The notes under the pieces: model-generated | Seen by the model: only the letters and a program-made list of their open reading frames with translations | The model's database searches: none | Told to the model about the DNA's origin: nothing | Program-made: the position numbers and the translations under genes | In this document: positions 149-27,593 of the stretch, in pieces | How the letters are laid out: each line of letters opens with the position of its first letter | Position numbering within the stretch: the first letter of the stretch is position 1 | IMG/VR virus record: IMGVR_UViG_2778261009_000004 | DNA from: a virus | Lineage: Duplodnaviria; Heunggongvirae; Uroviricota; Caudoviricetes | DNA: 28,707 nucleotides | Reading direction: 5' to 3' (one strand)

Positions 149-172
149 AATTACCTCTCGCTTTTCTGCAAT

Positions 173-196
173 AAAAAAGGCGTCATTTCTGACGCC
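173..196 (-). terminator. Putative intrinsic terminator between J and lom
   Basis: Minus-strand hairpin GGCGTCA-GAAA-TGACGCC followed by TTTTTT, between the J stop (215-217) and the lom start (148). Confidence 0.4.
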
Positions 197-214
197 CGTT
201 CTGGGTTATAAAAT

Positions 215-3616
<3,402 letters not shown>

Positions 3617-3673
3617 TCACGCTCCATAAACGACAAAACCGCCCGCAGGCGGTTTCACATAAAACATTTTGCA

Positions 3674-4962: not shown

Positions 4963-4967
4963 GGGAT

Positions 4968-5666: not shown

Positions 5667-5675
5667 CAGAGCCTC

Positions 5676-9070: not shown

Positions 9071-9769
9071 AACGCACACCTCCGGAAATACCTTCCCCAA
9101 GATGCATCAGTTCTTCGTCCGTTCGCTCCGGTATCCCGTTCTCTTCCGGTAAAAGGCTGAAATCAGCCACCGCAGCATCACTGCTACCGGACACCATTCT
9201 CACGATCAATGCCTTCAGCGAGGCAAACTGCGCATCCATCCACACATCACTGAAGCTCTGCATCCGGAAATAATCGCCCCACTCACCAAGCTCAGTGGCC
9301 GACATTTCCGACAGCATCCGCCGCCAGTCTGCCCGCCGGAACTCCCGGGCAAGCCGCATGACAAACTGCATTTCCCGCGTCAGGACTTTTCCGGCGTCAG
9401 CACCTCATGCTCCAAATCCCCGGCATTCTCAATGACTCCCATACCGCTCAGCGACAGAACCATCTCCGCCCCCGCTCCCAGGGCATCATACGACCATGTT
9501 GTAATAACGGATGCGCAAAGCGTCTCAACATCCTGAGACTGTTCCGCATTCCACAGTGAGCGGGAAACCAGCCAGGCATTGATATCCATCCCCATCCGCA
9601 GAAAAGCAATCTGTCGTTCAGCCTCCGGCAGTTCTCCCTCTTCGGCATCAAACTTTGCCGTTCGCTGCTGAACAAACGCCAGATATTCAATTCTCTGCAG
9701 CCCGGACAGCTCACTGAGCACCACGGACTGCTTTTCATAATTAAACGTGCCCTGTTTCAGAAACATCAT
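9042..9769 (-). CDS. T: Tail assembly chaperone G-T fusion made by programmed -1 ribosomal frameshift (T segment is 9042..about 9404 in the -1 frame)
   Basis: The ORF at 9042..9371 is in the -1 frame relative to G and stays open upstream to 9404, overlapping the last 8 codons of G. The G-frame sequence just before its stop is CTG ACG CCG GAA AAG TCC TGA, with GGAAAAG at the position of the lambda G GGA AAG slip site. Confidence 0.6.
9380..9769 (-). CDS. G: Tail assembly chaperone G
   Basis: Lambda G-like N-terminus MMFLKQG...LSELSGLQRIEYL from ATG 9769 with SD GGTGGAG. The track ORF start at 9808 would encode the terminator hairpin and is probably an artefactual extension. Confidence 0.85.
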   Translation of the reverse strand: MMFLKQGTFNYEKQSVVLSELSGLQRIEYLAFVQQRTAKFDAEEGELPEAERQIAFLRMGMDINAWLVSRSLWNAEQSQDVETLCASVITTWSYDALGAGAEMVLSLSGMGVIENAGDLEHEVLTPEKS

Positions 9770-9782
9770 GTTCTCCACCTGC

Positions 9783-9806
9783 AAAAAAGCCCCGGATAAC
9801 CGGGGC
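9783..9806 (-). terminator. Intrinsic terminator / attenuator directly downstream of major tail gene V
   Basis: Minus strand: perfect 7-bp stem GCCCCGG-TTAT-CCGGGGC followed by TTTTTT, 20 nt after the V stop and just before the G SD. Confidence 0.55.
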
Positions 9807-9826
9807 AAATGATGAGTATCGTCCTG

Positions 9827-10576
9827 TTAACCTGCGGCGCTGACAGCCACCGCAGCCACTGCCACAAAATCGCCGTCAGAAGTCATGCCCACAATGCTGA
9901 CACTGCCCTGCTTCACGCCTTTCACCGTGGCCACAAGCCCGTTCAGGGTCACCGTGGCAGTCTGTGGATCTGTCGAATGCACACTGATCGCTTTGTCACT
10001 GGCTCCGTCAGGTTTTACTGTAAAGGTCAGCGTGGTGGTTGCTCCCACTTTTACACTGGCAGATGCCGGTGCCACCGTCAGCCCGGTAACGCTCACTGTT
10101 TCAGTGCCTTCCTCTGCCAGATACGGACGCCCCACACCGCTGATTTTCACTGTGCGGGTCATCACGTCTTTTGAGGCAATGGTTTTACCCAGTGAGCTCA
10201 GCCAGCCACGGAAAACATCAACAGTGCCGTTGGGATATTTGATACGAAACGCGCAGACTTCACCGGAGTCGAACAACTGAACCAGTTTTTTCTGCCCGCT
10301 GTCACCCGGACGCCAGGCCAGCGTCGCCGAAGTATCACCGACGGATTTCTGCCCCTGGGTTGTCGTTTTCCAGTCTGCATCTTCATCATCGAGATAAGTG
10401 TCATCTTCTGCATCAGCGGTCATTTCGCCAGGTTGCAGATCCTTCACCATCGCAAGACGCAGCCAGTCAGTGTCCGATAAAGGGTTCGCAAACGCATCGC
10501 CCTTGCCGGTGTACATCCAGAACGTCGTTCCCGCACCTTTCGTTTTTGCCAGTGGATTTGGTGTGGTCATTGCCAC
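9827..10576 (-). CDS. V: Major tail protein V with C-terminal Ig-like (Big_2-type) domain
   Basis: 249-aa ORF in the V position (lambda V is about 246 aa); C-terminal ...VTGLTVAPASASVKVGATTTLTFTVKP... Ig-like repeat. Confidence 0.9.
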   Translation of the reverse strand: MAMTTPNPLAKTKGAGTTFWMYTGKGDAFANPLSDTDWLRLAMVKDLQPGEMTADAEDDTYLDDEDADWKTTTQGQKSVGDTSATLAWRPGDSGQKKLVQLFDSGEVCAFRIKYPNGTVDVFRGWLSSLGKTIASKDVMTRTVKISGVGRPYLAEEGTETVSVTGLTVAPASASVKVGATTTLTFTVKPDGASDKAISVHSTDPQTATVTLNGLVATVKGVKQGSVSIVGMTSDGDFVAVAAVAVSAAG

Positions 10577-10581
10577 CTCCT

Positions 10582-10995
10582 TTAATTCGTGTACGTGATC
10601 TGGTACGTGATTTCCGCCATCGCCCAGGTGGCCATCTCATTATCACGTTGATAGTTAAAACCGAGAGGGAGCAGGGTGTCGATGAGTCCGGAAAGTGCCG
10701 GTATATCATTCAGGGCCGGGAAAATGGTGCTCTCCATCCACATATCCAGCTCTGAATCCGGTGCCTGTGCCCGGATGAAGACAGCAATATGCAGAACAGC
10801 CTGCCAGTCATCTTCATCCGTCATTTTTCCGGTGTACTGAGCATCACTCAGCCACACCGCCACGGCAGGCAGTTCCTGCGCATCAATAAATGCCGGAAGC
10901 CCGTCAAAAAACGTGGCGCTGTCTCCACACTGTTCCCGAAGGCGTGCCAGTACGGCCTGGCGGATTTGTGTATGTCGGTTCATCGGGTCAGCCAT
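10582..10995 (-). CDS. U: Tail terminator protein U
   Basis: 137-aa ORF with ATFFDG...PAVAVWL...DSELDMWMES motif similar to lambda U. An alternative ATG at 10983 overlaps the Z stop in an ATGA arrangement. Confidence 0.85.
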   Translation of the reverse strand: MADPMNRHTQIRQAVLARLREQCGDSATFFDGLPAFIDAQELPAVAVWLSDAQYTGKMTDEDDWQAVLHIAVFIRAQAPDSELDMWMESTIFPALNDIPALSGLIDTLLPLGFNYQRDNEMATWAMAEITYQITYTN

Positions 10996-11558
10996 AACCT
11001 CAGTTGTTGTTTCAGTGCATACCCCAGCTGTTTCGGCATTTCCGCAGCAATAATGCGGTCGCGGGCATCTTCAAATGCCTGTGTCAGCGGTCCGGACAGC
11101 GGGACTTTCACCACATCAATGGGGTAACGATTTTTGCCATCAATACGCCGCATCACATGCCAGCGACCATTCGCCAGTTGCTGAATAAACGCATCCCGGA
11201 AAAGATATTTACCCACCTTCAGCACACTGCCACGGTACTGCAGTTTTCCACCACGCCGGGCCAGTCTGACCCGGGCTGTCCCCAGCTTAATAGCGGGCAG
11301 ATTGCCCCGGTTAACGCGGATCCTGGCCGTCATTTTTCCTGACGGACTGGCTTTAAACACCCGGACACGCTGACGTACCAGTTTCAGGGGGATCCCTTTC
11401 ACCTGGTTATCTCCCGCAACGGTATTCCCGGCAACCTGCCGGGTGGCGACCGAGACCGCTTTCTGTGCCACACGGTTTATCGCCCATGCGCTGGCCTGTG
11501 GCACCATACGGGTATCAAGGCTGTTCAGATTACGGATGGCATTCTCAAGCCCCTTCAT
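10980..11558 (-). CDS. Z: Tail completion protein Z
   Basis: 192-aa ORF, same length as lambda Z; position between FII-like and U. Confidence 0.85.
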   Translation of the reverse strand: MKGLENAIRNLNSLDTRMVPQASAWAINRVAQKAVSVATRQVAGNTVAGDNQVKGIPLKLVRQRVRVFKASPSGKMTARIRVNRGNLPAIKLGTARVRLARRGGKLQYRGSVLKVGKYLFRDAFIQQLANGRWHVMRRIDGKNRYPIDVVKVPLSGPLTQAFEDARDRIIAAEMPKQLGYALKQQLRLWLTR

Positions 11559-11569
11559 CCCACACCTCT

Positions 11570-11845
11570 TTACTCAATAAAGATCATTGGCTTACCGTTA
11601 AAACGTTCATGCCGTGTAACCGTCCATTGTTGTCCGTCATAAACAACGCGATCCCCGCGCCGTGGGCGGTATCCCGAAGAAAACACCACCAGAGAGACCG
11701 CAGGTCCGGACAGAGCATTCAGCTCTGCCAGTGTTTCTCCCGGGATCACAGTCATATCGACATCATTAATCGAGGCTGTCTTTCCCATCTTTCTAACCGT
11801 GATAGCATCCATACGCGCTGCCAGCCGGGAAAAGGGATCAGACAT
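11570..11845 (-). CDS. Head-tail joining protein (FII-like)
   Basis: 91-aa ORF; N-terminal MSDPFSRLAARMDAI and ...RRGDRVVYDGQQWTV resemble lambda FII motifs (MADFDNLFDAAIARA ... RRGDTLTIGEENFWV, from memory). Position immediately upstream of Z. Confidence 0.6.
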   Translation of the reverse strand: MSDPFSRLAARMDAITVRKMGKTASINDVDMTVIPGETLAELNALSGPAVSLVVFSSGYRPRRGDRVVYDGQQWTVTRHERFNGKPMIFIE

Positions 11846-12161
11846 TGAGTTTTACCGGCACTTCTTCTGCACTGGTTCCGGCATCTGCCCAGACAACCCC
11901 GACCAGCGGATCAGAGCCGCTGTTAGTCAGCTGAACTTTTCCGGACTTCAGATAAACCTTCTTACCCGTTTTCATGTCATCCGTTTTCAGCTTAGGCAGC
12001 ATAAACACACCTTCGGTCATGCCGTCGCCTGTTTCACCCTGTGGAATATCGGTCAGCGCCACCGCAAAAACATCGCCCACCTGCACCAGATCTCCGCTGC
12101 TGATGGCTGCACTGGCAACAATCGCCACCGTTTTTCCTTCTTCTACAAAATTCTTTGCCAT
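11838..12161 (-). CDS. DUF2190-like small capsid-associated protein (possible decoration/cement protein)
   Basis: ATG at 12161 (MAKNFVEEGKTV...) with SD GGAGA; small beta-rich protein immediately downstream of the major capsid gene. The track ORF is extended to 12206. Confidence 0.5.
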   Translation of the reverse strand: MAKNFVEEGKTVAIVASAAISSGDLVQVGDVFAVALTDIPQGETGDGMTEGVFMLPKLKTDDMKTGKKVYLKSGKVQLTNSGSDPLVGVVWADAGTSAEEVPVKLNV

Positions 12162-12204
12162 AACTGTCTCCGCACAGCCCCGTTCAGGGGCTGATTTCAG
12201 GTAC

Positions 12205-12225
12205 AAAAAAAGCCCTTACGGGCCA
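12205..12225 (-). terminator. Putative intrinsic terminator / attenuator downstream of the major capsid gene
   Basis: Minus strand GCCC-GTAA-GGGC (GNRA loop) followed by TTTTTTT, between the capsid stop (12248) and the next start (12161). Confidence 0.4.
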
Positions 12226-12247
12226 TCAGAGTTGTTGTCTGCGACGT

Positions 12248-14206
12248 TTACGCCGTACATTTCACCAGACCGCGGTGATCAACTGGCGCGACACCGGCGT
12301 CAATACGCACTTTCGTTGTCACGCCATCCACACTGAAGCCCTCCATCTGATCAATATATGGCGTATCCACACCGTTGAGATAAGCCACTTCAATCGTATC
12401 GGAGCCTTTTGACGCAGCCAGGTAGAAGGTGGTCTGGCTGTTATCATCAAGACGAGGCTCTGCAATAACGGTCGCAAAATCTTTCACCGGGTTAATAATA
12501 CCGGCGTTAATGTCAGCCCCCTTGACACTTGAGGAGCGAATGACCTGGTTAGCAACAGACTCCATCGCCGTCGGTACCAGTACGAACGCAGGACGAATAT
12601 TCAGATGACGCTCCCCCTCTTTCTGAACGCGCATCAACTGGCGGGCTTTATCCAGCGATGCCACGTCCATTGCCGCGCTCTCCAGTACGTTTGCATGTTT
12701 CGCTTTATCGAACAGACTTACATTATCTGTGGAGATTTTCGGGTTAGACGTCAGAATGGCATAAACCAGATCGGCAATAGTGGATTTCGCCGCACGGCCC
12801 AGTTTCATCGGGACATCGGTCAGCATATTCAGATCATCATTGATAATGGCCTGACGGGTGATACTGAACAGCTCGCCATAGGTCGCCAGTGCAATAGTGG
12901 CCTGTTTATCTCCGGTGGTGACGTATTTATATTCCGCCCCTTCACGCACCTGACGTAGAGCACTGAAGCCCCCCATACCCACACGATGGGCAATTTTAAA
13001 ATCAGACAACTGACCTTTCCGCGTCCACTGTTCATAGGTTTCAGGGGCATCTTCCCAGCCCTGCAGAATGGCTTTGTTCGCAACATCCAGCAGAATATTA
13101 CCGAAGTCAGACGTACTGTGTGTGAACGCCGCACCGACCATCTGCATCGGGTTATAACCGGAAACCCCAATACCCCGTTCAGTTAGTGACATACGGGCAT
13201 ATTCACGCAGGGTCATCCCGTTGTAGACATTATCACGTTCGGTTTTTTCAAATCCGGCACGCGCCATCAGCGCCTGGCGAATCCCGTCCCCCACAAAATT
13301 ACCGTTACCGGCATAAATATGAGCCGGGGTATTTTTATTGGATGGCGTGGACTCGCGCCCCATCTCGTTCAACAGCTTTTCACGGGCCTGCTCCAGCGAA
13401 CATTCAGGATCGGCAAGACACTGGGCCTGCAGCGTCTGATAACGCCCGCCAAACATGGCAAACAGATCATTAATACCGTTTACACGCGCTTTTTGCTCTG
13501 CCAGTACCTGCGCACGGATACTGTTTTCATCCACCACGGGTGCTGCTGCCTGCACTGGCGTCCGGGAGGCTGCAGGTTCATCATCCTGTACGCGTGGAGC
13601 ACTGTTGCGTGGCGGAGTAATCATGTTTCGAATGGATTCCGGCATCTTTTTAAATTCCTCTGTACGTTTTGACTGAATACATGCCATTGCCTTAACGGCT
13701 GGTGTCACCTGATCAGCAAATCCCTGTGCCAGACATTCGGCACCGGACATCCAGGTCTCATCCGCCAGCATGGCAGCAATTTCATCGGTGGTTTTCCCGG
13801 TTTTCTGTGCATAAGCGGGTAACAGAACCGCCTCAACTTTATCGAGCAGGTCGGCATAGGTGCGCATGTCCTCCGCATCACCGCCCGTAAAGCCAAATGG
13901 TTTATGAATCATCATGAAGGAGTTTTCCGGCATAATGACCGGGTTTCCCACCATCGCAATGACCGACGCCATTGACGCCGCCACACCGTCGACATAAACG
14001 GTAATGGACGCACCATGTGTTTTCAGTGCATTAAAAATGGCGATGCCTTCAAAGACATCGCCACCCGGTGAATTAATATGGAGATTAATGTGGGTGATAT
14101 CGCCCAGTGCATTCAGATCACTGATAAACTGCTTCGCTGTAACACCCCAGAAACCAATCTCGTCATAAATATAAATATCCGCGTCACTCTGGTGACCTGC
14201 CTGCAT
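12248..14206 (-). CDS. Prohead serine protease (ClpP/S49-like) fused in frame to a scaffold-like linker and an HK97-fold major capsid protein
   Basis: One uninterrupted ORF. N-terminal part DIYIYDEIGFWGV...INSPGGDVFEG...MMIHKP is ClpP-like; middle is a charged helical linker; C-terminal about 330 aa has HK97-type capsid motifs (...GYNPMQ...ITRQAIINDDLNML...). First ATG after the portal stop is 14206; the track ORF start 14467 overlaps portal. Confidence 0.8.
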   Translation of the reverse strand: MQAGHQSDADIYIYDEIGFWGVTAKQFISDLNALGDITHINLHINSPGGDVFEGIAIFNALKTHGASITVYVDGVAASMASVIAMVGNPVIMPENSFMMIHKPFGFTGGDAEDMRTYADLLDKVEAVLLPAYAQKTGKTTDEIAAMLADETWMSGAECLAQGFADQVTPAVKAMACIQSKRTEEFKKMPESIRNMITPPRNSAPRVQDDEPAASRTPVQAAAPVVDENSIRAQVLAEQKARVNGINDLFAMFGGRYQTLQAQCLADPECSLEQAREKLLNEMGRESTPSNKNTPAHIYAGNGNFVGDGIRQALMARAGFEKTERDNVYNGMTLREYARMSLTERGIGVSGYNPMQMVGAAFTHSTSDFGNILLDVANKAILQGWEDAPETYEQWTRKGQLSDFKIAHRVGMGGFSALRQVREGAEYKYVTTGDKQATIALATYGELFSITRQAIINDDLNMLTDVPMKLGRAAKSTIADLVYAILTSNPKISTDNVSLFDKAKHANVLESAAMDVASLDKARQLMRVQKEGERHLNIRPAFVLVPTAMESVANQVIRSSSVKGADINAGIINPVKDFATVIAEPRLDDNSQTTFYLAASKGSDTIEVAYLNGVDTPYIDQMEGFSVDGVTTKVRIDAGVAPVDHRGLVKCTA

Positions 14207-14219
14207 CCTGAACCAGGAA

Positions 14220-15728
14220 TTATTCTTCGGACTGGTCGTCGGTGTGCTGCGGCTCCTGTCGTTTCGTTGCGGCACTGCTGCCTCCTTTATCACTGGCCGG
14301 ATCGGTATCAAATACCAGATCCAGCTTGCGGTTTTCATCAATTTCGGCCTTGCGCCGACGTTTGACATCATCCGGATTACGACCACCTGCACGTACCCAG
14401 TCTGATTCTGTCGCCGCTCCACCACGAATCTGAATTTTCCAGGCCTCAGCCTCCTTAACAGGGTCAATCCACGGCATCACCGGTCCGGAATACACCGCGG
14501 TATACAGTGAAGAACGATCAAGATCGCGGGGTAGCCTGATAACACCGGATGCCACAGCCTGTTTCAGCCAGGCACGATACATCGGGCGGGTGACGGCACC
14601 AATAAACCAGTCCTGCAGGATCAGGTAGCCATCAGTGGATTCAACCAGCTCCTGACGCTGGGCGCTGTAAGTGCCGTTATAGTTGCGTGCCGTACTGGAA
14701 AAACTCAGACGACTGCCCGCCGCCACGGCACGCAACTGACCATTACGAAAAGTTTCAAGGTTAGGATTGGGACGATCCGACTTCACCATTCCGATTTCTT
14801 CGCCGGGTTTCAGATCGTCGTAAATAATGCCTGGCTGAATGGTAAGCTCGCGTTCATTCTCCTTGCTGCCATTACCATCCGGTTCATAGCTCTGCCCGTC
14901 GCCTTTCCGGATGTACATCCCCAGAGCAGCGGCGATCCTTGCTGCAGTCAGCTCAGAATCTTCATACTCTTTCAGGGCACTGAGGCGGATCAGCACACCG
15001 GACAACAAAGACGTCCCGCGCATCTGGTGCAGACGGCGAACAAATTTAAGATGCAGCATTCGCTCTGCATCCACTTCTTTGGTTTCCATCTGCCGCCCGG
15101 ATACGGGACGGCTTTTATACACCAGATATTTTTCGGGACGCCCCCAGTCATCAACAAACACGCCCTGATTCAGCCTGTTGCTCTCATCACTGGTCATGGG
15201 AATAAAGTCCGGCTCGAGCGCCTCCAGCCAGAAATGAACACCGGCAGAAGGCGTCAGGCTGTTTATGCGCCCGGAAACCATCTGGGCAAACACCTCACCA
15301 TCGCGCAGCCAGGTACGCAGCATCAGACGTTCCAGCATCGGACGGGTAAACTGCCCGGTGACTTCCGGACTGACAGACCATTCACTCCATCGGGTGCGTA
15401 TCTCCGCTGCCAGATCACGGGCAATGGCCCCATTGCGTAATACCGGATGTGGCTCGACAATAATCCCGTTTTTCCCCACCACCCGTTCTTCCAGCTTGTC
15501 AAATACACCAATAACCAGATCGTGGTTGTTATCAAGGTAACGGGCCTGCTCACGTAACGACACGGCCCCGTACTGGCTTAACTGGTCGGCAGTTCGGTTT
15601 TCCCGCCGGGCTTTGTGTGTCCGTGTCGTTTTTACGGCCTCATAAGCCTGGATCACCGCACGGGAACGCAGCCTTGCCGCTTTCCATCCTGGTGAAAAAA
15701 CGCCAATCACATCATCAAGAATTGCCAT
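14220..15728 (-). CDS. Portal protein (lambda B-like family)
   Basis: About 500 aa, located between the W-like gene and the protease-capsid gene; acidic C-terminus. ATG 15728 overlaps the W stop (TGATG); the track start 15800 is a longer extension. Confidence 0.85.
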   Translation of the reverse strand: MAILDDVIGVFSPGWKAARLRSRAVIQAYEAVKTTRTHKARRENRTADQLSQYGAVSLREQARYLDNNHDLVIGVFDKLEERVVGKNGIIVEPHPVLRNGAIARDLAAEIRTRWSEWSVSPEVTGQFTRPMLERLMLRTWLRDGEVFAQMVSGRINSLTPSAGVHFWLEALEPDFIPMTSDESNRLNQGVFVDDWGRPEKYLVYKSRPVSGRQMETKEVDAERMLHLKFVRRLHQMRGTSLLSGVLIRLSALKEYEDSELTAARIAAALGMYIRKGDGQSYEPDGNGSKENERELTIQPGIIYDDLKPGEEIGMVKSDRPNPNLETFRNGQLRAVAAGSRLSFSSTARNYNGTYSAQRQELVESTDGYLILQDWFIGAVTRPMYRAWLKQAVASGVIRLPRDLDRSSLYTAVYSGPVMPWIDPVKEAEAWKIQIRGGAATESDWVRAGGRNPDDVKRRRKAEIDENRKLDLVFDTDPASDKGGSSAATKRQEPQHTDDQSEE

Positions 15729-15940
15729 CAGAACCTCGCCAGCCGGTACCCGGGATGCCCCCGTCGTCGTGTAATCAGAGCCGCAAGGCGGCGCTCCCAC
15801 TCCTGCCGTCCCTGCCGGATCTCAGATAAGTTTTCCATGGTCATCTGCTGACCATTAAAGGTGACGGATTTTCCGTCCAGCACCGCCATTTCAGCTTCCG
15901 TATAACGCTGAATCATGGCTTCGATATCATTCTGGTTCAT
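15728..15940 (-). CDS. Head-to-tail joining protein W-like
   Basis: About 70 aa; C-terminal ...LITRRRGHPGYRLARF resembles the lambda W C-terminus (...RRRGPAGFYV, from memory). ATG at 15940 overlaps the terminase stop (ATGA). Order terminase-W-portal as in lambda. Confidence 0.7.
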   Translation of the reverse strand: MNQNDIEAMIQRYTEAEMAVLDGKSVTFNGQQMTMENLSEIRQGRQEWERRLAALITRRRGHPGYRLARF

Positions 15941-18039
15941 AACCATCCTCCGGAAGTCAGCCAGGGGTTAACATCGTCAGTTACTGTTTTCTTCCGTTTT
16001 TGTTTTTTAACAGGCGTGGATACCGGTTCCGGTGTGGGTGACGGTTCGGTACTGTCCGGGACACACTCCAGCCAGGTTTCCCGGCTCGCCCACTCCGGTG
16101 CATCCGGCCAGCGGATCTTTTCGTATCCATGCAGAATGACCAGAGCCTCGGCATACACCATCAGGTCAAAAGCTTCGTTGGCACCGCGACCCGGCTTACT
16201 CCATTTCCCGTCACTGCTCCGCTCTTCATACGTCAGTTCGTCGTAAAACCAGCTCCCCAGCCAGTCAGGGAAATGCACATAGCCGGGACCTGGCGAGTCA
16301 CGCCATAACGCGTTATTCACCCGGTCTTTCAGGGCATCCGTCTGAAGAAGCCAGAGCGGCACATGACCTGCGGCCTGCGCCCGGCGGCCCGTTCGTCCGG
16401 TGTTATCAGGGAATGTACGGCTGATCAGTTTTGCGCGCCGGATGCTGTCACCCTTAAACAGGTAAATACGTTTACCAAGGCCATCACGACGGCAACGACG
16501 CCAGAATTTATAGGCATTATCAGTGACCCCGTCTTCACCGCCGGAGTCCACCGCCATTGCCATCAGTCGCATTTGTTGAGAAGGATCGGAGGCCAGCGGC
16601 CAGCTTTTATGAAAAACATCCGTCAGCAGGACATCCCAGTCTTCCGGATAGCTGGCCGGATCAATTCGCTGGCTCTCCCCGTCGCTGTCACCGCGCAATG
16701 ACTGCGTGATGTTGTAACGATCAATAATCCAGCGTTCGCCACGGCTGCCATAGCCCGTTACCTGAACCACAAAACGGCGATGACGTCCCGCCTGCACATC
16801 CACTGTCGCCACAAGGAAATTAACGCCATCCGGCACACTGCGGGAAGGAACTGGCTCTGCCCGCTGCTCAAGCAATTCACTTTTTCGTTGCTCCATGCTG
16901 GCGCGGGGAAGATAAGGTAATCCCCAGTCGGTATTGATAACCGTCTTGAGTGTCTCTTCACTTCCGGTTGTCTCGTATTCCTGTTCTGCAGTAAGCAGTT
17001 TGTAAACGAGTTGCGAGAGTGTCTGATAAGCAGCTGCCGGACCCTCCATCCAGAATGACGCAATACGTGAACGCCGGGGATCACCATAACGACTGCCATC
17101 TGCATTGATGGATTCACCATCCCGTAACCAGACCCCACGTCCGTTCAGCTCGCGTTTTTGTTCAGGCAAAATCCGTCCTGAACAGGAAGGACACTGAATA
17201 TAAGCCGCCTCACTTGCCAGCACAGGATCGGCAATATCACGGAAACCAGCAACCACATCGCCGCAGGGCTGAAAATACTCACCACAGTGTGGACAGGGCC
17301 AGTACCAGCGACGGCGATCGCCACGGTTATAGAGCGACAGGATCCCCGTGGTTGGTGGAGCCTCATGCGGTGAAGTCCGTCGCCATTTCACATCCTTCAC
17401 ATCCCTGCCGGGGGAACTCTCCACCAGCGTCATACCACTGGACATAAATGTGGTGGTACGTTTTGAGGCAAGAGAGAAGGCATCCCCCTCACCATCAATA
17501 TCTTCCGGAAAACGGTCATAATCCGTCAGCGCCACGCATTTATAATCTGATGAAGACATGATATTGACTGACGGCCAGCCGATTTTCAGGTAGTTGCCAG
17601 CAAGGACTGTTCTGTCATAAACGTTGTTGTCATTTTTGTTCGGACTCAGGCGACTGACCACTTCCGGGCTGACGCGAAACGTTCTGGCGAGTCGTTTTTT
17701 GGAGTGTTCGCGGGCTTTTTCCTCCGTCATCTGAATGATCAGCATATCAGCAGGATCGCAAATCACGTTGTAAATCACCCAGCCGTCAATCAGGCCGATA
17801 GTCTTGCCGGTTCGTGCCGGGCCAACAAATATCACTGCGTCGTATTCACGCGAGGCCAGGCAGTTCATAGGCTCAATAACATACGGTGCCACCAGCGGAT
17901 CCCACGGGACTGAGTTCCCTGCCCCCATAGGCACCCGCATATACTGAGCAACGGCATCAGCAACCCGCATTCGTCTCGGTGCGCGAAGGATATAACCTGA
18001 ATCGGTTCGTGCTGCCTTTGCGGTTTCCTGATTCAGCAT
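15937..18039 (-). CDS. Terminase large subunit (GpA-like)
   Basis: 700 aa; Walker A VIFVGPARTGKT; Cys cluster CPHCGEYFQPCGD...CPSCSG; start overlaps the small-subunit stop (TAATG). Confidence 0.9.
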   Translation of the reverse strand: MLNQETAKAARTDSGYILRAPRRMRVADAVAQYMRVPMGAGNSVPWDPLVAPYVIEPMNCLASREYDAVIFVGPARTGKTIGLIDGWVIYNVICDPADMLIIQMTEEKAREHSKKRLARTFRVSPEVVSRLSPNKNDNNVYDRTVLAGNYLKIGWPSVNIMSSSDYKCVALTDYDRFPEDIDGEGDAFSLASKRTTTFMSSGMTLVESSPGRDVKDVKWRRTSPHEAPPTTGILSLYNRGDRRRWYWPCPHCGEYFQPCGDVVAGFRDIADPVLASEAAYIQCPSCSGRILPEQKRELNGRGVWLRDGESINADGSRYGDPRRSRIASFWMEGPAAAYQTLSQLVYKLLTAEQEYETTGSEETLKTVINTDWGLPYLPRASMEQRKSELLEQRAEPVPSRSVPDGVNFLVATVDVQAGRHRRFVVQVTGYGSRGERWIIDRYNITQSLRGDSDGESQRIDPASYPEDWDVLLTDVFHKSWPLASDPSQQMRLMAMAVDSGGEDGVTDNAYKFWRRCRRDGLGKRIYLFKGDSIRRAKLISRTFPDNTGRTGRRAQAAGHVPLWLLQTDALKDRVNNALWRDSPGPGYVHFPDWLGSWFYDELTYEERSSDGKWSKPGRGANEAFDLMVYAEALVILHGYEKIRWPDAPEWASRETWLECVPDSTEPSPTPEPVSTPVKKQKRKKTVTDDVNPWLTSGGWL

Positions 18040-18533
18040 TACTCCTCCTGCTGTAATTCCTCCTCATCATCCGCACCTGCTTCAGTCACCCGCAGGGCTA
18101 TCTGATCGCGCAGATCATCAATAATGGACTGAACACGGCTCACAGCGGCAGGCTGCAGACCGCAGTCACGTTCAAGAATATCCGGTAATGTCTCCAGCAC
18201 CTGCACGACCGCTTTTGCCCAGATGGCAAACTCCCGTCTGACATCACTGGCCGGAATGAGTTGTGCCGTTTCCTGTTCGAACTTAAGACGCTCACGTTCA
18301 GACTGATACCAGGCTTTGCGCTCATGCGCGTCCATTTCGCCTTCTGCAACCGGCGGTGGTAATGCCAGAAATGCCGACACAATATCAACCACCCGATAAA
18401 GCTTGAGGTTGCTTTCATGCCCCCCTGCAACGGGTAGATTTTGCAGCCTTGCCGCAGCAGTCTGGCGATGTACACCTGACAATGCCGCCAGTTGACTGAT
18501 ATTCAGCGTCAGATTTTTTAACTCTCGATCCAT
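18039..18533 (-). CDS. Terminase small subunit (Nu1-like, N-terminal HTH)
   Basis: 164 aa; N-terminal LNISQLAALSGVHRQTAAARL helix-turn-helix and acidic C-terminus; immediately downstream of the cos-like site. Confidence 0.8.
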   Translation of the reverse strand: MDRELKNLTLNISQLAALSGVHRQTAAARLQNLPVAGGHESNLKLYRVVDIVSAFLALPPPVAEGEMDAHERKAWYQSERERLKFEQETAQLIPASDVRREFAIWAKAVVQVLETLPDILERDCGLQPAAVSRVQSIIDDLRDQIALRVTEAGADDEEELQQEE

Positions 18534-18702
18534 ACCCGCTCCAGAATGTTTTAAACATGCATCTTGCGAACAACTTTAGGCAAACGGTGTTAGTGATGAA
18601 CAAAAAACAATCAGAATCGACACCATAAAAATAAAACCACTGTAATATCAATCAATTACAGTAGTGGTGATGACGAATAAAATTTCAAAAACTAGCCTTT
18701 TT

Positions 18703-18722
18703 CCGCGACGCTCCCGCCCCGT
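18703..18722. other. Putative cos site (cosN core with predicted 12-nt cohesive end GGGCGGGAGCGT, minus-strand orientation, 18708..18719)
   Basis: Minus strand reads ACG GGGCGGGAGCGT CGCGG. Lambda reads ACG GGGCGGCGACCT CGCGGG (from memory): flanks identical, core differs in 5 positions. Located about 170 nt upstream of the Nu1-like gene, with AT-rich (cosB-like) DNA in between. Confidence 0.5.
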
Positions 18723-19085
18723 GGTAGGGACCCCCACTGGGAGGACCCGACAGCCTGACAACCGTTACGAGCATCTGAAACAGAGCTTTACATAATGGCA
18801 TGGGGATAATTCAGAAGGACATCACAGCATGCCCACACAAATTAGTGTGAGTGTCCTGTTTCTTACTACGCGCAGGACTGACGAGCATGAGGGGAAAATA
18901 CGCGAACCGAAATGCCTTATCTTCAGAAATGCAGCCGGCATCCGAACTGGACGATATTGTAAATTCACCTAAATACGAGGCATTACTGTAGTTGAATTGC
19001 AGTACTGTATTAGCCTTACAGTGACAGAATACGATATTGACTCTGTCACTTGTGAAATGGTCAGAATGGTTAGCAGTTATGGTGA

Positions 19086-19292
19086 TCAGTCAACCACCAG
19101 GGAATAATCCTTCGTATTCTTATCGTGCTTTACTAACGCGGCCTCAATTGCCCTGAATGCTTCCAGAGATACTTGATGTTCTATACATGCAATTACAACA
19201 TCCGGGTAACCCATCGAAATGGTGCTATTAAGCATAGTTTTTACACGAACCTGCTCCTGGGAGGGGGCATCAGTGTATTGATCTTTATGCAT
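19086..19292 (-). CDS. Hypothetical small protein (moron between cos and lysis genes)
   Basis: 68-aa ORF with no family I can recognise; soluble composition. Confidence 0.4.
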
Positions 19293-19587
19293 TTTGTCGC
19301 TCCATTCGTTTGCTCTTCACTTGCGGCTAAAAATATAACGTCAAATCACTCAGCATGAAAGAGTGAAAGTTTCAGCGCGTTTCCCTTACATAATCTGTCG
19401 TTTGTATTCTCTTCAGGCATACCGGAAAGACTAGGTATTGTCACACAACCAATACCATCGACAATCGAGATTTATATCTATTCGGTAATGTTTAAATATA
19501 ACAAAACCCCGTAAAAACGAGGTTTATGGGTAATTTGTATTGTTGAATAGCATCTGATGAGAAATTGATGCTAATACTATAAACATG

Positions 19588-20232: not shown

Positions 20233-20435
20233 ATTTTCACTTTCTTAAATCTAACGACAGATGGCTAACATTTAAGTATTGTGAAATATTATCAAATGTA
20301 ATCATCATTGATTTACAAAAGATACATTTTGCCCCGAAAGGATTTCTGTCAGAAACATCAAAAGATGATGTTCTATACTGAGAACCATGGCAACACGGGC
20401 ATCTAAAGTGAATATGGTTTGTAATATTTTCTACC

Positions 20436-20651
20436 TCAAAGTGCCACTACATGAACAGCTGCAGGGCCTTTAGGTCCGTTCTCAATACCAAATTCGACTT
20501 CCTGATTCTCAGTTAACGTTTTGAAATCGTTGCTCTGAATAGCTGAGAAATGCACAAACACATCTTTGCTACCATCTTTCGGCGTGATGAAACCAAAACC
20601 TTTTTCAGGGTTAAACCATTTCACTAAACCAGTCATTTTGTTAGACATCAT
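20436..20651 (-). CDS. cspI: Cold-shock protein CspI
   Basis: (M)[70 protein letters not shown], matching E. coli CspI as remembered. Confidence 0.9.
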
Positions 20652-21011
20652 TATTACCTTTTGAAGAAGTTAGCCCTTGGGCAGAATGGTCCGAAAAAAA
20701 ATATCAGAGAGAAAAACCAACAAGGAAATCTCAAGAGGTACAAATAATAAAATTATAACAATGACTGCTTCAGATAATTTTGTAACAAACCAGAACACCA
20801 TTAACGCATGATTAACCAACCATAGCAAGGATTACTTTTGTAAAGAAAAACACACGAATGAAACAATAGCTTTATTTATTAATAAAACGTGTCATTTTGT
20901 CTAATGACCTTTTATCTTACCCTTAAGATTTCAAGGATTTTGACTCATGGAAGAGTCCTTTTTATTTAAATTTCACATTCAGCGCTAAAAATAATCCGAT
21001 TTAATATTAAT

Positions 21012-22039
<1,028 letters not shown>

Positions 22040-22350
22040 AGATATTTATGATGAGGACGCTCGTGCTTATTGGCAGGATTTTCAATCTTAAAGGAGTACT
22101 GATGCTGCAGATAAGACTCAACTTTTCTGACAATTTTTCTGCTACTTCCAGGAAGACTTGCCGGACGCTCATTCTGGCTGCTGCCTCATAAAACTCCAGC
22201 GTAGCTCCTTCAACACGGTCCATGGCGACATCCAGGCCAAAAATTTCACCGTCAAAGCGTTCTTTGTCCTGTAAGGCTACAGTTACCGTAACTTTATTCT
22301 CAAAATTACGGACTCCTTTCACAACCAGTTCATAGTCTTGAGTCATTGGA

Positions 22351-22566
22351 TTATTCTCCTCTCGCAGCCTTACGCCTGTCTTCTTTAATCTTGAAATAAA
22401 GATTTGTCAGATACGTCAGCAGGCCAAAAACCAGGCTACCCAGCACACCGATTGCAGCCCACTGTGACGGAGTTACTTTATCGAGTAACTGCAATGCCCA
22501 GAAACCAGCATTACCCGCCGATGTGCCATAGGCAACACCTGTTGTTAACTTATCCATTGATTTCAT
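22351..22566 (-). CDS. Class II holin / pinholin (S21-like) with dual-start motif
   Basis: [28 protein letters not shown]...[35 protein letters not shown]: two transmembrane segments, MKSMDK dual start (antiholin/holin), SD GGTGAGGA. The track ORF extends to 22641. Confidence 0.85.
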
Positions 22567-22785
22567 ATCCTCACCCCGATGTACACGGATGGTGCAATAT
22601 GTTTGAAAAGATCGGAGTCTACGGGGTAGTTTTGACAGCACACGTTGTTCTCAACGGCGCTAAAAAAACATACACATTAAAAATGTGGGTAATTATTTTG
22701 AAAGAAAGTCATATATAAAATAATAATACGAGAAATGTTTTCATATTTAGTGTACTGTATACGGCCATTTATACAGGAAAAGCCT

Positions 22786-22956
22786 ATGTCAGAACGTAAA
22801 GACTCAAAATCACGCCGTAATTATCTCGTTAAATGTTCCTGCCCAAACTGCACCCAAGAGTCAGAACACAGTTTTTCAAGAGTACAAAAAGGTGCCCTTT
22901 TGATCTGCCCTCATTGCAACAAAGTATTCCAGACAAATCTTAAAGCTGTAGCCTGA
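22786..22956 (+). CDS. Small zinc-ribbon protein (moron; possibly YdfK/YnaE-like)
   Basis: MSERKDSKSRRNYLVKCSCPNCTQ...ICPHCNKVFQ: CxxC...CxxC. SD AGGAAA 6 nt upstream of ATG 22786. The track ORF starts at 22735. Confidence 0.5.
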   Translation: MSERKDSKSRRNYLVKCSCPNCTQESEHSFSRVQKGALLICPHCNKVFQTNLKAVA

Positions 22957-23019
22957 TTGATTTTATTAGTAACAAGTATTTTTTATATTTTAATAATATA
23001 TTTAAAGCAGATAATAAAA

Positions 23020-23037
23020 AACCCGCCTGAGCGGGTT
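23020..23037. terminator. Intrinsic terminator hairpin (mainly minus-strand orientation)
   Basis: AACCCGC-CTGA-GCGGGTT with an A/T run on the flanks; on the minus strand the hairpin is followed by TTTTTATTAT. Confidence 0.45.
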
Positions 23038-23319
23038 TGAGATTGTGGTGCTTTTTGTGGGAGTCATCCACTTACGCACTTTGTTTTGCGATGCCAGCAG
23101 TTAGCTTCTGCTGTGAAACTATTCATGCAGCAAACCTGCACTTCACCACAATGGTTAGCATACTTTTCCTGATTAAGATTTTGCCAAATATGCTGGCCAT
23201 TGTTTCATGTATTGGACCTCCTTACTTTTTATTAAAGAGATCCAATATTCAATACTCTGTCCGTATCTCTACTCAGGCATCAGCCTTCTTCGTTATCGTA
23301 TACAGACGAGCGATGAATT

Positions 23320-23535
23320 TTAATCAGTAATGATGACATTTGCTGCTGCAGGACCTTTAGCACCACTCTCTATAGAGAAGGTAACCTTTTGACCTTCAAA
23401 TAAGGTTCGATAATTATCATTCTGAATCGCAGAAAAATGCACAAACACATCTTTACTACCATCAACAGGAGAAATAAAGCCGAAACCTTTATCAGCGTTA
23501 AACCATTTTACTAAACCAGTCATTTTATTTGACAT
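23320..23535 (-). CDS. cspB: Cold-shock protein CspB
   Basis: [71 protein letters not shown], matching E. coli CspB as remembered. Confidence 0.9.
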
Positions 23536-23845
23536 TCTACATTCCTTAACTTGAGCCTTTCGGCATAAATGGTTTGCATAACAGAAACGACTTCGTACTT
23601 AATTGGAGAGACTCAAAGAAGGAATAAGTGAATAACACCTGAAATGAGAACTGCTTTAGTAAACTACTTCGTATATCGTCTGTTCTTCAAACCGACGCAG
23701 TCATTAACTCATAGTTGAACATATGAAGCAATGTTTATTTTAGACATCCAGCCACCTTCAACCCTATCAAAAAAGTAGTTTTCTCCAGGAACGTGTGTAT
23801 GGTGCACCAGGTTATCAGTATTAAGGAGTTTTTCTGTCCCCTAAA

Positions 23846-24050
23846 ATGACAGGAATTGTCAAAAACTTTGACTACAAAAGCAGCAAAGGTCTTATATTCC
23901 CATCCGATGGCGTATCGATGCCCAGCTTCACGTTTCAGCTCTCAATCTTCGAGATGCAGAAGAAATTACCACAGGATTACGCGTGGAATTTTGCCGGATA
24001 AATGGTTCGCGTGGACCTTCAACTGCCAATGTTTATCCCGGGATGAGATT
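23846..24050 (+). pseudogene. cspF: cspF/cspH-like cold-shock gene disrupted by a frameshift
   Basis: Frame 1 from ATG 23846 encodes the N-terminal cold-shock-domain motif [22 protein letters not shown] then junk until a stop at 23999. The rest of the domain ([42 protein letters not shown]) lies in another frame from about 23910. The frames switch at GATGGC|GTATCG, about 23909-23912. Confidence 0.55.
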
Positions 24051-24082
24051 CAATATCTCTATTGCCCCATTTAAAGCACAAA

Positions 24083-24102
24083 AACCCGCTTATAAGCGGG
24101 TT
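24083..24102. terminator. Bidirectional intrinsic terminator (candidate tR' for the late operon leader; also 3' of the cspF-like gene)
   Basis: AACCCGC-TTATAA-GCGGGTT followed by TTTTCTACTTTTTT on plus; on minus it is followed by a T-rich run. About 110 nt downstream of the Q stop. Confidence 0.5.
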
Positions 24103-24150
24103 TTCTACTTTTTTCTAAACGTCGGATACACAAAGCCCATCGTTGAGAAA

Positions 24151-24179
24151 ATCTTATCCATGTTTTTTGAAAAATGCAA
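24151..24179 (-). promoter_or_regulatory. Candidate late promoter (PR'-like) immediately downstream of Q
   Basis: Minus strand: -35 TTGCAT (24179..24174), 17-bp spacer, -10 TAAGAT (24156..24151), followed about 50 nt later by the terminator hairpin. Pattern match only. Confidence 0.3.
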
Positions 24180-24210
24180 ACATCATGTCGCCATCTTCAG
24201 CAAAAATCAT

Positions 24211-24963
24211 TTATCTCGTCACCTTCCTCAATTGCGCTTCCGCGTATGCTTCTTCCTGCCAGCACTTTGTTACCAGTTTACCAATGACGTCCGCATACCC
24301 CTTATACCACTGATAATCGGTCAGGTCTGGTACCAGCTTCTGGACATGACGTCGTGCCAGCGTGGTCGGTAAACGACTAAACCGGTTTCCATTACAACGC
24401 CCACAAATCTTATATACCGGTACGCCATGAAACCGGGTTCTTTTTTCATCCAGAACAATCCCTTTACCCTTACACCCTCTGCACGCTGTGCTGACTTCGC
24501 CCTTACCATGGCAATGCTGACATAGTTCCTTTACCCATTCTTCCTTGATTACAGATTCCCCGCGTCTGTAGTGTTTCACCACTTCGCGCAATACATTATA
24601 AAATCCCGTACCTGAACAATGCTCACAGCGAGCCTTACTTGCCGCAGACCTGGAGTAATCAGCAAAGGCAAAATTCACGAGGTAAGGAATAATCTGTAAC
24701 CGGATTTCTTCACTCAATTTGTTCAATGTCGGGTTATCCAGTGCCATCGCGTAATTTAGCAGGCCTTCAATCGCAAACTGAGGGTCCTGAACACCAACTT
24801 TTGCCAGAAATAAGGCCAACCCAAGTGGTGCTTTCGACTGCACCATCCCCTGCGCTGCCATTACATCCGTAATTGTTAAACAACCGGTGCCTGTCGCTGG
24901 AGCGTCATCGCTCAATTTTGGAGATTTTGGGGAGTAATATTTTGGTAAGGCTTCAAGGTTCAT
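24211..24963 (-). CDS. Late-gene antiterminator Q (Qin quuQ-type, four CxxC pairs)
   Basis: 250 aa; CEHCSGTG...CQHCHGKG...CRGCKGKG...CGRCNG zinc-binding motifs; located immediately upstream of the late region. Confidence 0.8.
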
Positions 24964-24976
24964 GCTCGTTCTCCAC

Positions 24977-26065
24977 TTACGCCAGTACGCCAGTTGCCAG
25001 CGCGCGATCGATAAAACGAAATATCAGCTCCAGTTGGGAGCCATACTTCTCTTCAAATGCCACTGTATCCGTATGCAGCTCGTTGTGATGCTTTCTGCAC
25101 AAAGGCAACACAAAGAGATCATGTGCTTTTGTTCCCATTCCGCCCTGCCCGTGACCAATCAGATGATGCGGATCGTCGGCTGGCATACCGCAGCAAGCAC
25201 ACGGCTGTGTCTTAACCCAACGAGTGTATTTCTCCTTAACCCAGCGGCGACGTTTAGGCAGCTTCATGAAAGATTCCGGAGACTCTGGATCAACGGTGAT
25301 GCTTACCACCGTCTTTTCCTGTGGTGGTTTTTGTTGCTGTTGGGCGTAAGGCAACGGTGCAAGATTTTTTGTGCGTTGTTTCAATATGCTGGTGGCGGTC
25401 TGCTCTCCCGGTACGATGTCGCTTTCGCGGTACACCGAGCAGATTTTTTCCGCTGGTAATCCCAGCGAACGACGCGATACAGCCTCAGGTAGTGCATCTA
25501 CCACCTGATTGCAGACCGCCCACCAGGATAATTCAGCCAAAGATAATTCCCGCTCCTGCGTACCGCTTATTGCGTGACGGATGACGTCAATCACCCATGC
25601 TGTCAGATTTTGTTGAGCAAGCAGCTCCAGTGATTCCGATGTCTGGTCACGCAGATGGTTGTCGCAGTGCCAGCACAACACCATTGCGCCGGTACCATAA
25701 CGGTGAATGACTGTTTCAGTGTGATGGTAATCGCCATTAGGCCACTGGCAGGATGTAACATGACGTAATAGCCAGTCAGACAATGCGCCAACGCCGCCAG
25801 CAGCACGAATCACCCGTTCGTTACTAAAAAACGGCAGCAATGTTTTGTCTTCCGCCAGCGGCTGGCGAACGGCAGGAACGACTCCGGATGGCAGATTACG
25901 CATGCTTTTTGGTTCCGGTTCCACCAGCACTCGAGGATTATGAAATATCTGTATGGATTCACGGCCCGGCTTAAGGACCACCAGCCCAAGCTCAGGCACC
26001 AGAACAGGTCTAAGTAATACCCGCACGTTACCTCCAGATCCGTTGCTGGAAAGTGCGGGACGCAC
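24977..26065 (-). CDS. DUF968 protein (YdfU-like) with C-terminal HNH-like Cys/His motif
   Basis: 362-aa ORF; C-terminal ...CACCGMPADDPHHLIGHGQGGMGTKAHDLFVLPLCRKHHNELH resembles an HNH/His-Me finger. True start may be an internal Met (for example about 25903). Confidence 0.6.
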   Translation of the reverse strand: MRPALSSNGSGGNVRVLLRPVLVPELGLVVLKPGRESIQIFHNPRVLVEPEPKSMRNLPSGVVPAVRQPLAEDKTLLPFFSNERVIRAAGGVGALSDWLLRHVTSCQWPNGDYHHTETVIHRYGTGAMVLCWHCDNHLRDQTSESLELLAQQNLTAWVIDVIRHAISGTQERELSLAELSWWAVCNQVVDALPEAVSRRSLGLPAEKICSVYRESDIVPGEQTATSILKQRTKNLAPLPYAQQQQKPPQEKTVVSITVDPESPESFMKLPKRRRWVKEKYTRWVKTQPCACCGMPADDPHHLIGHGQGGMGTKAHDLFVLPLCRKHHNELHTDTVAFEEKYGSQLELIFRFIDRALATGVLA

Positions 26066-26306
26066 GTGGTGGGCGTTCGGAATAAGGCAGCCTGACAGAG
26101 ATTATCCAGTGCCGATAGTCGAGACTGAGAGCTTTCTTAACCTCGAACCCGCGCCTGCGGTAAGAATGAATCAGCCATTCGGCCTGTTCTGCAGTGCATG
26201 GAGGGTGCTGGAACCATTCAGACTTGAATGCGTGAGAATACCGCCCGTGCGTGCAGGCAAGAACGGGCGAATTATCAGAATTGTAATATTTTACGTTGCG
26301 TGCCAT
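26028..26306 (-). CDS. Hypothetical protein
   Basis: 92-aa ORF upstream of, and overlapping, the DUF968 ORF; no family recognised. Confidence 0.35.
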   Translation of the reverse strand: MARNVKYYNSDNSPVLACTHGRYSHAFKSEWFQHPPCTAEQAEWLIHSYRRRGFEVKKALSLDYRHWIISVRLPYSERPPRASRTFQQRIWR

Positions 26307-26372
26307 CGGTTTTCTCCGGTGGCACGGTGTTACTCAGCGGGAGTTCAGCCCCGTGCAAGATTGTAGATGAGT

Positions 26373-26840: not shown

Positions 26841-26996
26841 TTACTCCTCAGGTTCGTAAGCTGTGAAGACAGCGACCTCCGTCTGGCCGGTTCGGATTCG
26901 TACCTCGCAAAGGTCTTTCCTCGTTACCAGTGCCGTCACTATGACGGTTAAACAGATGACGATCAGGGCGATTAACATCGCCTTTTGCTGCTTCAT
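26841..26996 (-). CDS. hokD: Hok-family membrane toxin HokD (RelF)
   Basis: Own translation: MKQQKAMLIALIVICLTVIVTALVTRKDLCEVRIRTGQTEVAVFTAYEPEE (51 aa). Not in the ORF track because it is under 60 aa. Confidence 0.9.
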   Translation of the reverse strand: MKQQKAMLIALIVICLTVIVTALVTRKDLCEVRIRTGQTEVAVFTAYEPEE

Positions 26997-27066
26997 AGCC
27001 TGCTTCTCTGTCAACGCAAAGCAGAAGTGTCACCTTCGGTGCGAAACAGAGATGTCATGCTTTGGT

Positions 27067-27354
27067 TCAGAGAATGCGTTTGACCGCCTCGCTATATACT
27101 TCCGAGCGTTCTCTTTTCCCAACAGAAATCACGAAAACGACAACTTTCTCGTCTATAACCTGGTATACAAGGCGATAGCCTGAAGACCGGAGCTTAATCT
27201 TGTAACAATCAGGCATACCACGGAGCTTGTTTGCTTCAATCCGGGGTGACTCAAGTACTTCAACCAGCTTCTTTTTCAACTGTTCACGTACCGTCGAGCC
27301 CAGCTTTCGCCATTCCTTTAGTGCCCGCTCGTCAAAATCCAGAAAATACGCCAT
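27067..27354 (-). CDS. relE: mRNA interferase toxin RelE
   Basis: 95 aa, MAYFLDFDERALKEWRKLGSTVREQLKKKLVEVLESPRIEANKLRGMPDCYKIKLRSSGYRLVYQV..., matching E. coli RelE as remembered. Confidence 0.93.
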   Translation of the reverse strand: MAYFLDFDERALKEWRKLGSTVREQLKKKLVEVLESPRIEANKLRGMPDCYKIKLRSSGYRLVYQVIDEKVVVFVISVGKRERSEVYSEAVKRIL

Positions 27355-27593
27355 CAGAGTTCATCCAGCGTCACACGTACTGGCTTAGGATTACGAAGCC
27401 GTTCTTTCACTATCTCCACAAGTTCAGCATCTTCATCACTCAGGAGTGTCTGTTTGAACGGCAAGCGTTCATTGTCAGCGATATACTCGAGCATGAGACG
27501 AAGCGCTTCAGAAGGAGTTACACCCATTTTTTCAAGCGCGGCGTAAGAACGCGCTTTAAGTTCATCGTCAATACGCAGGTTAATGCTACCCAT
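27354..27593 (-). CDS. relB: Antitoxin RelB
   Basis: 79 aa, MGSINLRIDDELKARSYAALEKMGVTPSEALRLMLEYIADNERLPFKQTLL...; stop overlaps the relE start. Confidence 0.93.
   Translation of the reverse strand: MGSINLRIDDELKARSYAALEKMGVTPSEALRLMLEYIADNERLPFKQTLLSDEDAELVEIVKERLRNPKPVRVTLDEL

Follow-up and report, generated by a model that had tools for sequence, protein, structure and literature searches.

A cspF Pseudogene with Two Deletions in Qin/Tritos-Type Lambdoid Prophages of Escherichia coli

The prophage-borne cold-shock gene cspF is interrupted by a 1-bp deletion and truncated by a 258-bp deletion in the DNA described here, the 28,707-nucleotide IMG/VR record IMGVR_UViG_2778261009_000004 (hereafter the window). 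It is very likely a genuine, heritable cspF pseudogene of Qin/Tritos-type lambdoid prophages of Escherichia coli, and a case of plain loss of function. Both lesions are present in 216 of 5,426 complete E. coli genomes (~4%), including those of ATCC 25922, LF82, and E24377A, and an intact progenitor of the allele exists in a metagenome contig. The pseudogene is already known as a RefSeq annotation and is real but ordinary; in literature searches for a cspF pseudogene, no paper on this allele turned up.

Among the Csp proteins, CspF and CspH make up the most divergent clade, with few aromatic residues and no known function (PMC6719143). When over-expressed, CspF does not act on CspA or CspD reporter mRNAs (PMC11648934). 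Cells in long-term stationary phase up-regulate cspB, cspF, and cspI alike; their competitive survival is reduced by the loss of cspB or cspI, and the loss of cspF has no effect (PMC7406224). The genes that matter in the available assays, cspB and cspI, are the ones that have been kept intact in the window. A dead cspF agrees with the report that knocking out this gene has no phenotype, unlike knocking out cspB or cspI. ATCC 25922, LF82, E24377A, and the other carriers have a dead cspF and lack the validated small protein YnfS. The presence of intact genes should therefore not be assumed in studies of CspF or YnfS function, or when E. coli is said to have nine Csp paralogues.

The cspF Locus and Its Reading Frames

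The window contains a lambdoid prophage in which the moron segment between the Q gene and the holin gene occupies 22.7-25 kb. The gene order is essD (holin, - strand), ynfU (+), cspB (-), cspF (+), ydfT/quuQ (Q antiterminator, -), and ydfU, the same as in the Qin prophage of E. coli K-12. A divergent cspB/cspF pair had been proposed from the letters of the window alone, and this arrangement is borne out: cspF diverges from cspB and has the Q antiterminator of a Qin-type prophage on one side and its holin on the other, in an order that matches K-12 and other annotated genomes. The coordinates of the features discussed here are collected in Table 1.

Table 1. Features of the cspF region and of neighbouring prophage genes in the window
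Feature	Position	Strand	Evidence
cspF pseudogene, from CTG 23834 to deletion junction	23834..24036	+	PGAP annotation; alignments to intact cspF
Cold-shock domain, N-terminal 22 codons, original frame	23846..23911	+	Translation; NF012007 matches residues 1-23 only
Frameshift site, one T missing (GATGG-T-CGT)	23910..23911	+	Alignment; no homopolymer, no slippery heptamer
Remaining 42 cold-shock domain codons (RIDAQLHV...STANVY), now in the -1 frame	23911..24036	+	Translation; repaired version matches PF00313 over residues 1-65
Premature TAA, original frame; product 51 aa from ATG 23846	23999..24001	+	Translation
258-bp deletion junction; lost are cspF codons 69-70 with the stop (CTT TCA TGA), the 29-codon ynfS, and spacer	24035..24036		Alignment to K-12
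Divergent allele patch, about 50 differences (~10%) from K-12	23700..24162		Alignment to K-12
AAGGAG motif resembling a Shine-Dalgarno sequence, 5 nt upstream of the CTG/TTG start position	23823..23828	+	Read from sequence; function inferred
Palindromic G+C-rich hairpin with T-runs, between cspF (+) and the Q gene (-)	24081..24114		10-bp stem, 5 G-C pairs
Q-type antitermination gene (ydfT/quuQ), intact, convergent with cspF	24211..24963	-	ORF and annotation of homologous loci
cspB, intact	23320..23535	-	Protein identical to K-12 CspB
cspB mRNA with cspA-type thermoregulator leader	23304..23696	-	Rfam RF01766, 158.8 bits, gathering score 78
ynfU, 56-aa zinc-ribbon protein, open reading frame	22786..22956	+	ORF and annotation of homologous loci
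cspI, intact	20436..20648	-	Protein identical to K-12
cspA-type leader of cspI	20390..20806	-	Rfam

The closest well-annotated relative is cspF of the K-12 Qin prophage (b1558), which occupies the same locus with the same neighbours and is ~90% identical in DNA sequence across the gene. In K-12 the gene is an uninterrupted 70-codon ORF followed by ynfS, whereas the copy in the window has lost a T at codon 27 and, further on, a stretch of 258 bp. In the alignment to K-12 cspF, the one T that is absent falls between G23910 and C23911 (GATGGTCGT turned into GATGGCGT), and codon 27, counted from the start at 23834, is the point at which the frame changes. The preliminary description had put the frame switch within 23909-23912 and ascribed it to a 1-bp deletion, and both the site and the cause proved right. 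It had also suggested alignment to K-12 cspF as a check, and the reference cspF genes turn out to be one continuous 70-codon ORF and do not share the two-frame structure.

As a result, no single uninterrupted ORF of ~70 codons encodes the whole five-stranded domain in the window. The first frame, read from the ATG at 23846, specifies 22 cold-shock residues and then unrelated residues until the TAA at 23999-24001. The rest of the domain is found from 23911 onwards in the frame that starts at 23848, one base behind; this frame has no stop until 24372 and passes straight through the hairpin at 24081-24104.

Which member of the family was this gene? With the T restored and the Leu-Ser end added, the translation scores 62.8 bits against Pfam PF00313 (cutoff 27) and 132.8 bits against the NCBIfam model of CspF, NF012007 (cutoff 111). 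The chromosomal paralogue cspH (b0989) belongs to the same CspF/CspH clade; the repaired protein reaches 104.6 bits on the CspH model, below its cutoff of 141, and the part of Qin matching the window has no cspH annotation. The scores of the repaired protein establish the ancestry of the DNA and, judged by them, the gene is cspF itself. It had earlier been called cspF-like, which was correct as to a cold-shock gene and too cautious as to its identity. The ORF that is actually present, 51 aa long, has no Pfam match and scores 35.1 bits on NF012007, below the cutoff of 111, with residues 1-23 matching. Since only the first 23 residues of this ORF match, the locus is a pseudogene of the CspF family and not a functional member of it.

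At 23834-23836, the start position homologous to the N-terminal MS(R/P)K of Csp proteins, the window has CTG and K-12 has TTG, and the first ATG (23846) lies four codons downstream of this CTG. The change from TTG to CTG was considered as a third lesion and rejected as diagnostic, because CTG is also found in intact alleles. PGAP takes CTG as the start of the intact cspF genes of ISHS7 and ET979, and two intact metagenome loci (L051 and L052) also have CTG at this position.

Loss of the 3′ End and of ynfS

The 258-bp deletion stops 45 nt short of the terminator hairpin at 24081-24104. CspF proteins end in ...NVYLS, and the lost codons CTT TCA TGA encode Leu-Ser-stop. The gene thus has no stop at its expected end because the deletion took the last two codons together with the stop. 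The absence of a stop, and the reading of the second frame through the terminator hairpin, had been noticed beforehand; the frame is open to 24372, and the 258-bp deletion supplies the cause.

The deletion also removed a complete neighbouring gene. The deleted 29-codon ORF matches Pfam PF23697 (YnfS) and has exactly the sequence given for YnfS in PMC6001520, where it is listed between cspF and ydfT and is among the K-12 small proteins identified by epitope tagging. It follows that every genome with this cspF pseudogene is without ynfS at this locus. The deleted block corresponds to 3501-3758 of the K-12 locus (L002). In the alignment to K-12, no microhomology was found at the endpoints of the deletion; there is a CATGAG repeat nearby, and it is off the junction. 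The deletion begins and ends at the edges of a block with a recombination history of its own.

A Divergent Allele Within a K-12-Like Backbone

Apart from the patch of roughly 460 bp at 23700-24162 that contains cspF, the window hardly differs from K-12 between 21.8 kb and 28.6 kb. The flanks of this patch, 23253-23699 and 24163-24493, show 0 differences from K-12. On its left, the patch begins where the cspB mRNA leader (Rfam RF01766, 23304-23696) has its 5′ end. Within the mature part of the protein, the window differs from K-12 CspF at seven positions (T11N, G14Y, G17S, T22F, V30A, L59S, and A64T), to which R3P and the exchange of TTG for CTG are added at the start. A patch with ~10% divergence between near-identical flanks means that the amino-acid differences from K-12 CspF are not the product of decay in place. 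The alignments instead support the patch as an old allele that would have been recombined in, with only the two deletions being specific to the dead copy. The preliminary description had spoken of the decay of one member of a cold-shock pair; the two deletions do inactivate cspF, as it supposed, but the about 50 differences belong to an old recombined allele and are not decay in place.

The intact form of the whole window-type allele is known from a single metagenome contig (SKEK01000857.1, locus L051). Compared with the window, this locus shares every window-type substitution across 23700-24162 and has 0 substitutions over 23253-24386, and it keeps both the T and the 258-bp block, so that it encodes a 70-codon CspF ending in YLS. 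Small indels at three places (TA at 23775, A at 24080, and T at 24109) also separate the two sequences, and these vary among other haplotypes with intact cspF as well (L005, L006, and L052; L056). Could the T in this contig be an assembly chimera of K-12-type and pseudogene-type reads? Window-type SNPs lie on both sides of it, at 12-14 nt in the upstream and 11 nt in the downstream direction, which argues that it cannot be.

Other loci show that alleles of this region recombine. ISHS7 and ET979 carry intact recombinant alleles in which a window-type 5′ part is joined to a K-12-type remainder. In metagenome contigs, cspF, the 258-bp block, and the 127 bp downstream each occur as at least two allele types, and these assort independently. 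The 258-bp block of L051 is 100% identical to that of K-12 (L002), and both of its flanks differ by ~10%, a pattern with P of about 1e-13 under uniform divergence.

Was the allele a functional gene before the deletions arose? Counted in the ancestral frame by the Nei-Gojobori method, the window-type and K-12-type alleles differ by 9.5 synonymous and 10.5 nonsynonymous changes. The dN/dS ratio is 0.37 overall and 0.19 downstream of the frameshift in the same frame, with an excess of synonymous changes per site (Fisher p about 0.01). These values indicate that the allele diverged while coding, and they suggest that it was probably protein-coding until the lesions arose. Among 40 copies of the dead allele, all five coding polymorphisms are nonsynonymous in the old frame. 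The corresponding McDonald-Kreitman-type comparison gives p = 0.057, which is not significant; five changes against none is weakly in the direction expected for relaxed constraint after inactivation. The density of polymorphic sites is similar inside and outside the remnant: 5 in 202 nt, compared with 7 in 134 nt of the non-coding upstream flank and 6 in 175 nt of the downstream flank.

Distribution of the Dead Allele

The spread of the allele was followed with queries for each lesion. A 95-nt query with the T restored matched 216 of the 5,426 complete E. coli genomes, all at 98.9% identity with one gap and none at 99% or above. A 96-nt query spanning the deletion junction also matched 216 of them. 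The equal counts point to complete linkage of the two deletions, the comparison being of the numbers (216 and 216) and not of the lists of genomes. Dead copies make up ~13% of the E. coli genomes that match the cspF region (216 of about 1,630-1,750). With the repaired queries of 337 nt and 95 nt, no intact copy of this haplotype was found in the complete E. coli genomes.

A pattern allowing 0 or 1 base at the frameshift site was run against IMG/VR and the GTDB species representatives, and each of the 39 matches was the gapped 46-nt form. The matches comprise 37 IMG/VR contigs, Escherichia ruysiae, and one contig binned as Veillonella. All 39 loci align without gaps to 23700-24210 and so have both deletions, although two of them end at a contig edge, one (L039) just past the junction and the other (L012) just short of the 3′ end. 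No haplotype with only one of the two deletions was found. The 1-bp and 258-bp deletions are therefore lesions relative to K-12, ISHS7, ET979, and L051 that are reproduced in independent assemblies. Resequencing that restored a single continuous ORF had been named as a refutation; the independent assemblies, which number in the hundreds, show the same frameshift instead.

Individual carriers are similar to the window to different extents. AMSCJX02 (DUT84_RS24560) has the same two lesions and is 100% identical to the window over 23540-24210, and EC11 (KDN44_RS11325) has the same allele with the same two lesions. In both, PGAP/RefSeq describes cspF as 'frameshifted; incomplete; missing C-terminus'. 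In Tritos (LF82 prophage 3), the cspF remnant is unannotated, carries both lesions, and has three SNPs relative to the window in 510 nt. The surrounding prophage of the window differs from those of AMSCJX02 and Tritos by 2-4%. In a tblastn search of a phage collection, Tritos alone had this allele, in frameshifted form, and phages 2H10, HannyBb, PhiR42_1, and PhiR63_1 had intact K-12-type cspF.

At the protein level, the repaired 66-aa and 70-aa sequences were looked up exactly among 15 billion proteins and neither was present; the exact protein of the intact progenitor is missing from that collection. The 51-aa ORF has been predicted on more than 115 contigs. The 90%-identity cluster that contains its product also includes a 681-aa threonine-tRNA ligase of Bifidobacterium, which looks like a clustering artefact of the protein collection. 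The contig binned as Veillonella (L013, JAGZPX010000007.1) is 22.9 kb long, belongs to a Veillonella parvula MAG, and carries this segment of the E. coli prophage at 99.6% identity; its placement in this public MAG almost certainly results from wrong binning.

Alternative Explanations

Single-base indels are the commonest assembly error, and a missing T might therefore reflect a sequencing artefact, with the gene intact in the organism. The frameshift site is not a homopolymer, however, and the same gap recurs in 216 complete genomes from many laboratories, in 37 IMG/VR contigs, in E. ruysiae, and in Tritos, always linked to the 258-bp deletion, which is beyond any read error; the chance that the gap is an artefact is close to nil. 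Hardly any more credible is the idea that the full cold-shock protein is restored by programmed -1 ribosomal frameshifting or by transcriptional slippage. It would suit this idea that the two halves of the domain lie in the 0 and -1 frames, and that the -1 frame is open from 23872, so that a shift anywhere within 23872-23911 would join them. Nevertheless, 23846-24001 contains no in-frame X XXY YYZ heptamer, there is no homopolymer at the site, and the intact homologues are encoded in a single frame, the progenitor of this allele and all other cspF alleles examined included. The joined frame would also lack a stop of its own and would run on past the terminator hairpin as far as 24372, appending 112 unrelated residues. 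A different reversal of the argument concerns the larger lesion: the short form of the locus might be ancestral, and K-12-type loci might have gained the 258-bp ynfS block by insertion. The block does behave as a separate module, as its K-12 identity in L051 between flanks that are ~10% different illustrates (P about 1e-13), and its allele types assort independently of those of cspF. This direction of change is nonetheless highly improbable, because the Leu-Ser-stop end that the block provides aligns to positions 69-70 of the CspF and CspH models and is thus ancestral, because cspF without the block has no stop for 112 codons, and because the short form occurs only together with the frameshift.

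It is very unlikely, though somewhat less so than the foregoing, that the allele is kept common by a new function of the remnant, either as a 51-aa small protein or as an RNA antisense to the prophage genes on the - strand. The allele is frequent (216 of 5,426) and has no further truncation, the 51-aa ORF is present on >115 contigs, and the commonest coding polymorphism (23995 C>T, in 15 of 40 copies) leaves the amino acid of the shifted frame unchanged. Set against this, the polymorphism density in the remnant is like that of the non-coding flanks, the 29 new residues match no family, the start position of the family is here a weak CTG, and linkage to a viable, transmissible prophage accounts for the frequency. 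The broader notion that the remnant is not inert is given a similarly slim chance, whether because the 51-aa ORF is translated as a new small protein or because the joint loss of cspF and ynfS has been selected in Tritos-type phages. Joint loss could be favoured since cspF and ynfS are transcribed against the prophage genes on the - strand downstream of Q.

Loss of function by deletion remains the preferred reading, and it can be put in the form of a history. A divergent, functional cspF allele would have recombined into this prophage backbone, and the allele would have acquired the 1-bp and the 258-bp deletions. The loss of the T would leave a peptide of at most 51-55 aa, made up of the first 22-26 cold-shock residues and 29 unrelated ones, and the 258-bp deletion would remove the natural C-terminus, the stop, and the neighbouring ynfS. 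The dead allele would have spread with the prophage, viable phages included, and would persist by linkage, cspF being dispensable. On this account the loss of cspF would cost little and be effectively neutral, the cold-inducible neighbours cspB and cspI having been kept.

The Prophage and Its Other Cold-Shock Genes

The neighbours of cspF had been described as intact, and they are: the CspB and CspI proteins are identical to those of K-12, and the 56-aa zinc-ribbon frame of ynfU is open. An Rfam search found full-length cspA-type leaders on cspB and cspI and nothing comparable at cspF, which fits cspF as a non-cold-inducible member of the family. A promoter scan found no consensus sigma-70 site for cspF.

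Tritos makes virions, and a plaque-forming isolate has been obtained (PMC9928086). The LF82 lysogen expresses cspI and cspB, as morons, at levels well over the prophage background, and likewise ynfN and hokD; cspF does not appear in the list given (PMC9928086). Since Tritos is viable and carries both lesions, the dead allele travels on a viable phage. Tritos is 97% identical to the window over 22001-26323.

The prophage of the window likewise looks, from its ORFs, like a seemingly complete phage genome resembling the viable LF82 phage. The window combines a right arm like that of K-12 Qin with a complete structural left arm that is missing from K-12. Unlike in K-12 Qin, positions 1-19400 contain long ORFs for a full lambdoid structural module, among them a 1132-aa J-like (tail tip) protein, a 1031-aa tape measure protein, a 739-aa capsid/protease fusion, a 526-aa portal protein, and a 700-aa terminase.

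At 24081-24104, between cspF and the Q gene, the hairpin forms a perfect palindrome (AAAACCCGCTTATAAGCGGGTTTT) that has a T-rich tail on either strand, and from its sequence it could terminate transcription both ways. Read on the - strand, it follows shortly after Q, presumably in the position of the late terminator tR' of lambdoid phages. In the stretch of the - strand from the end of the Q gene (24211) to the hairpin, where the late promoter would be expected, the promoter scan found no consensus sigma-70 site. To the right of the Q-to-holin segment, the window runs on into hokD and relBE, as in K-12, and the proteins encoded by hokD, relE, and relB (26841-27593) are identical to those of K-12.
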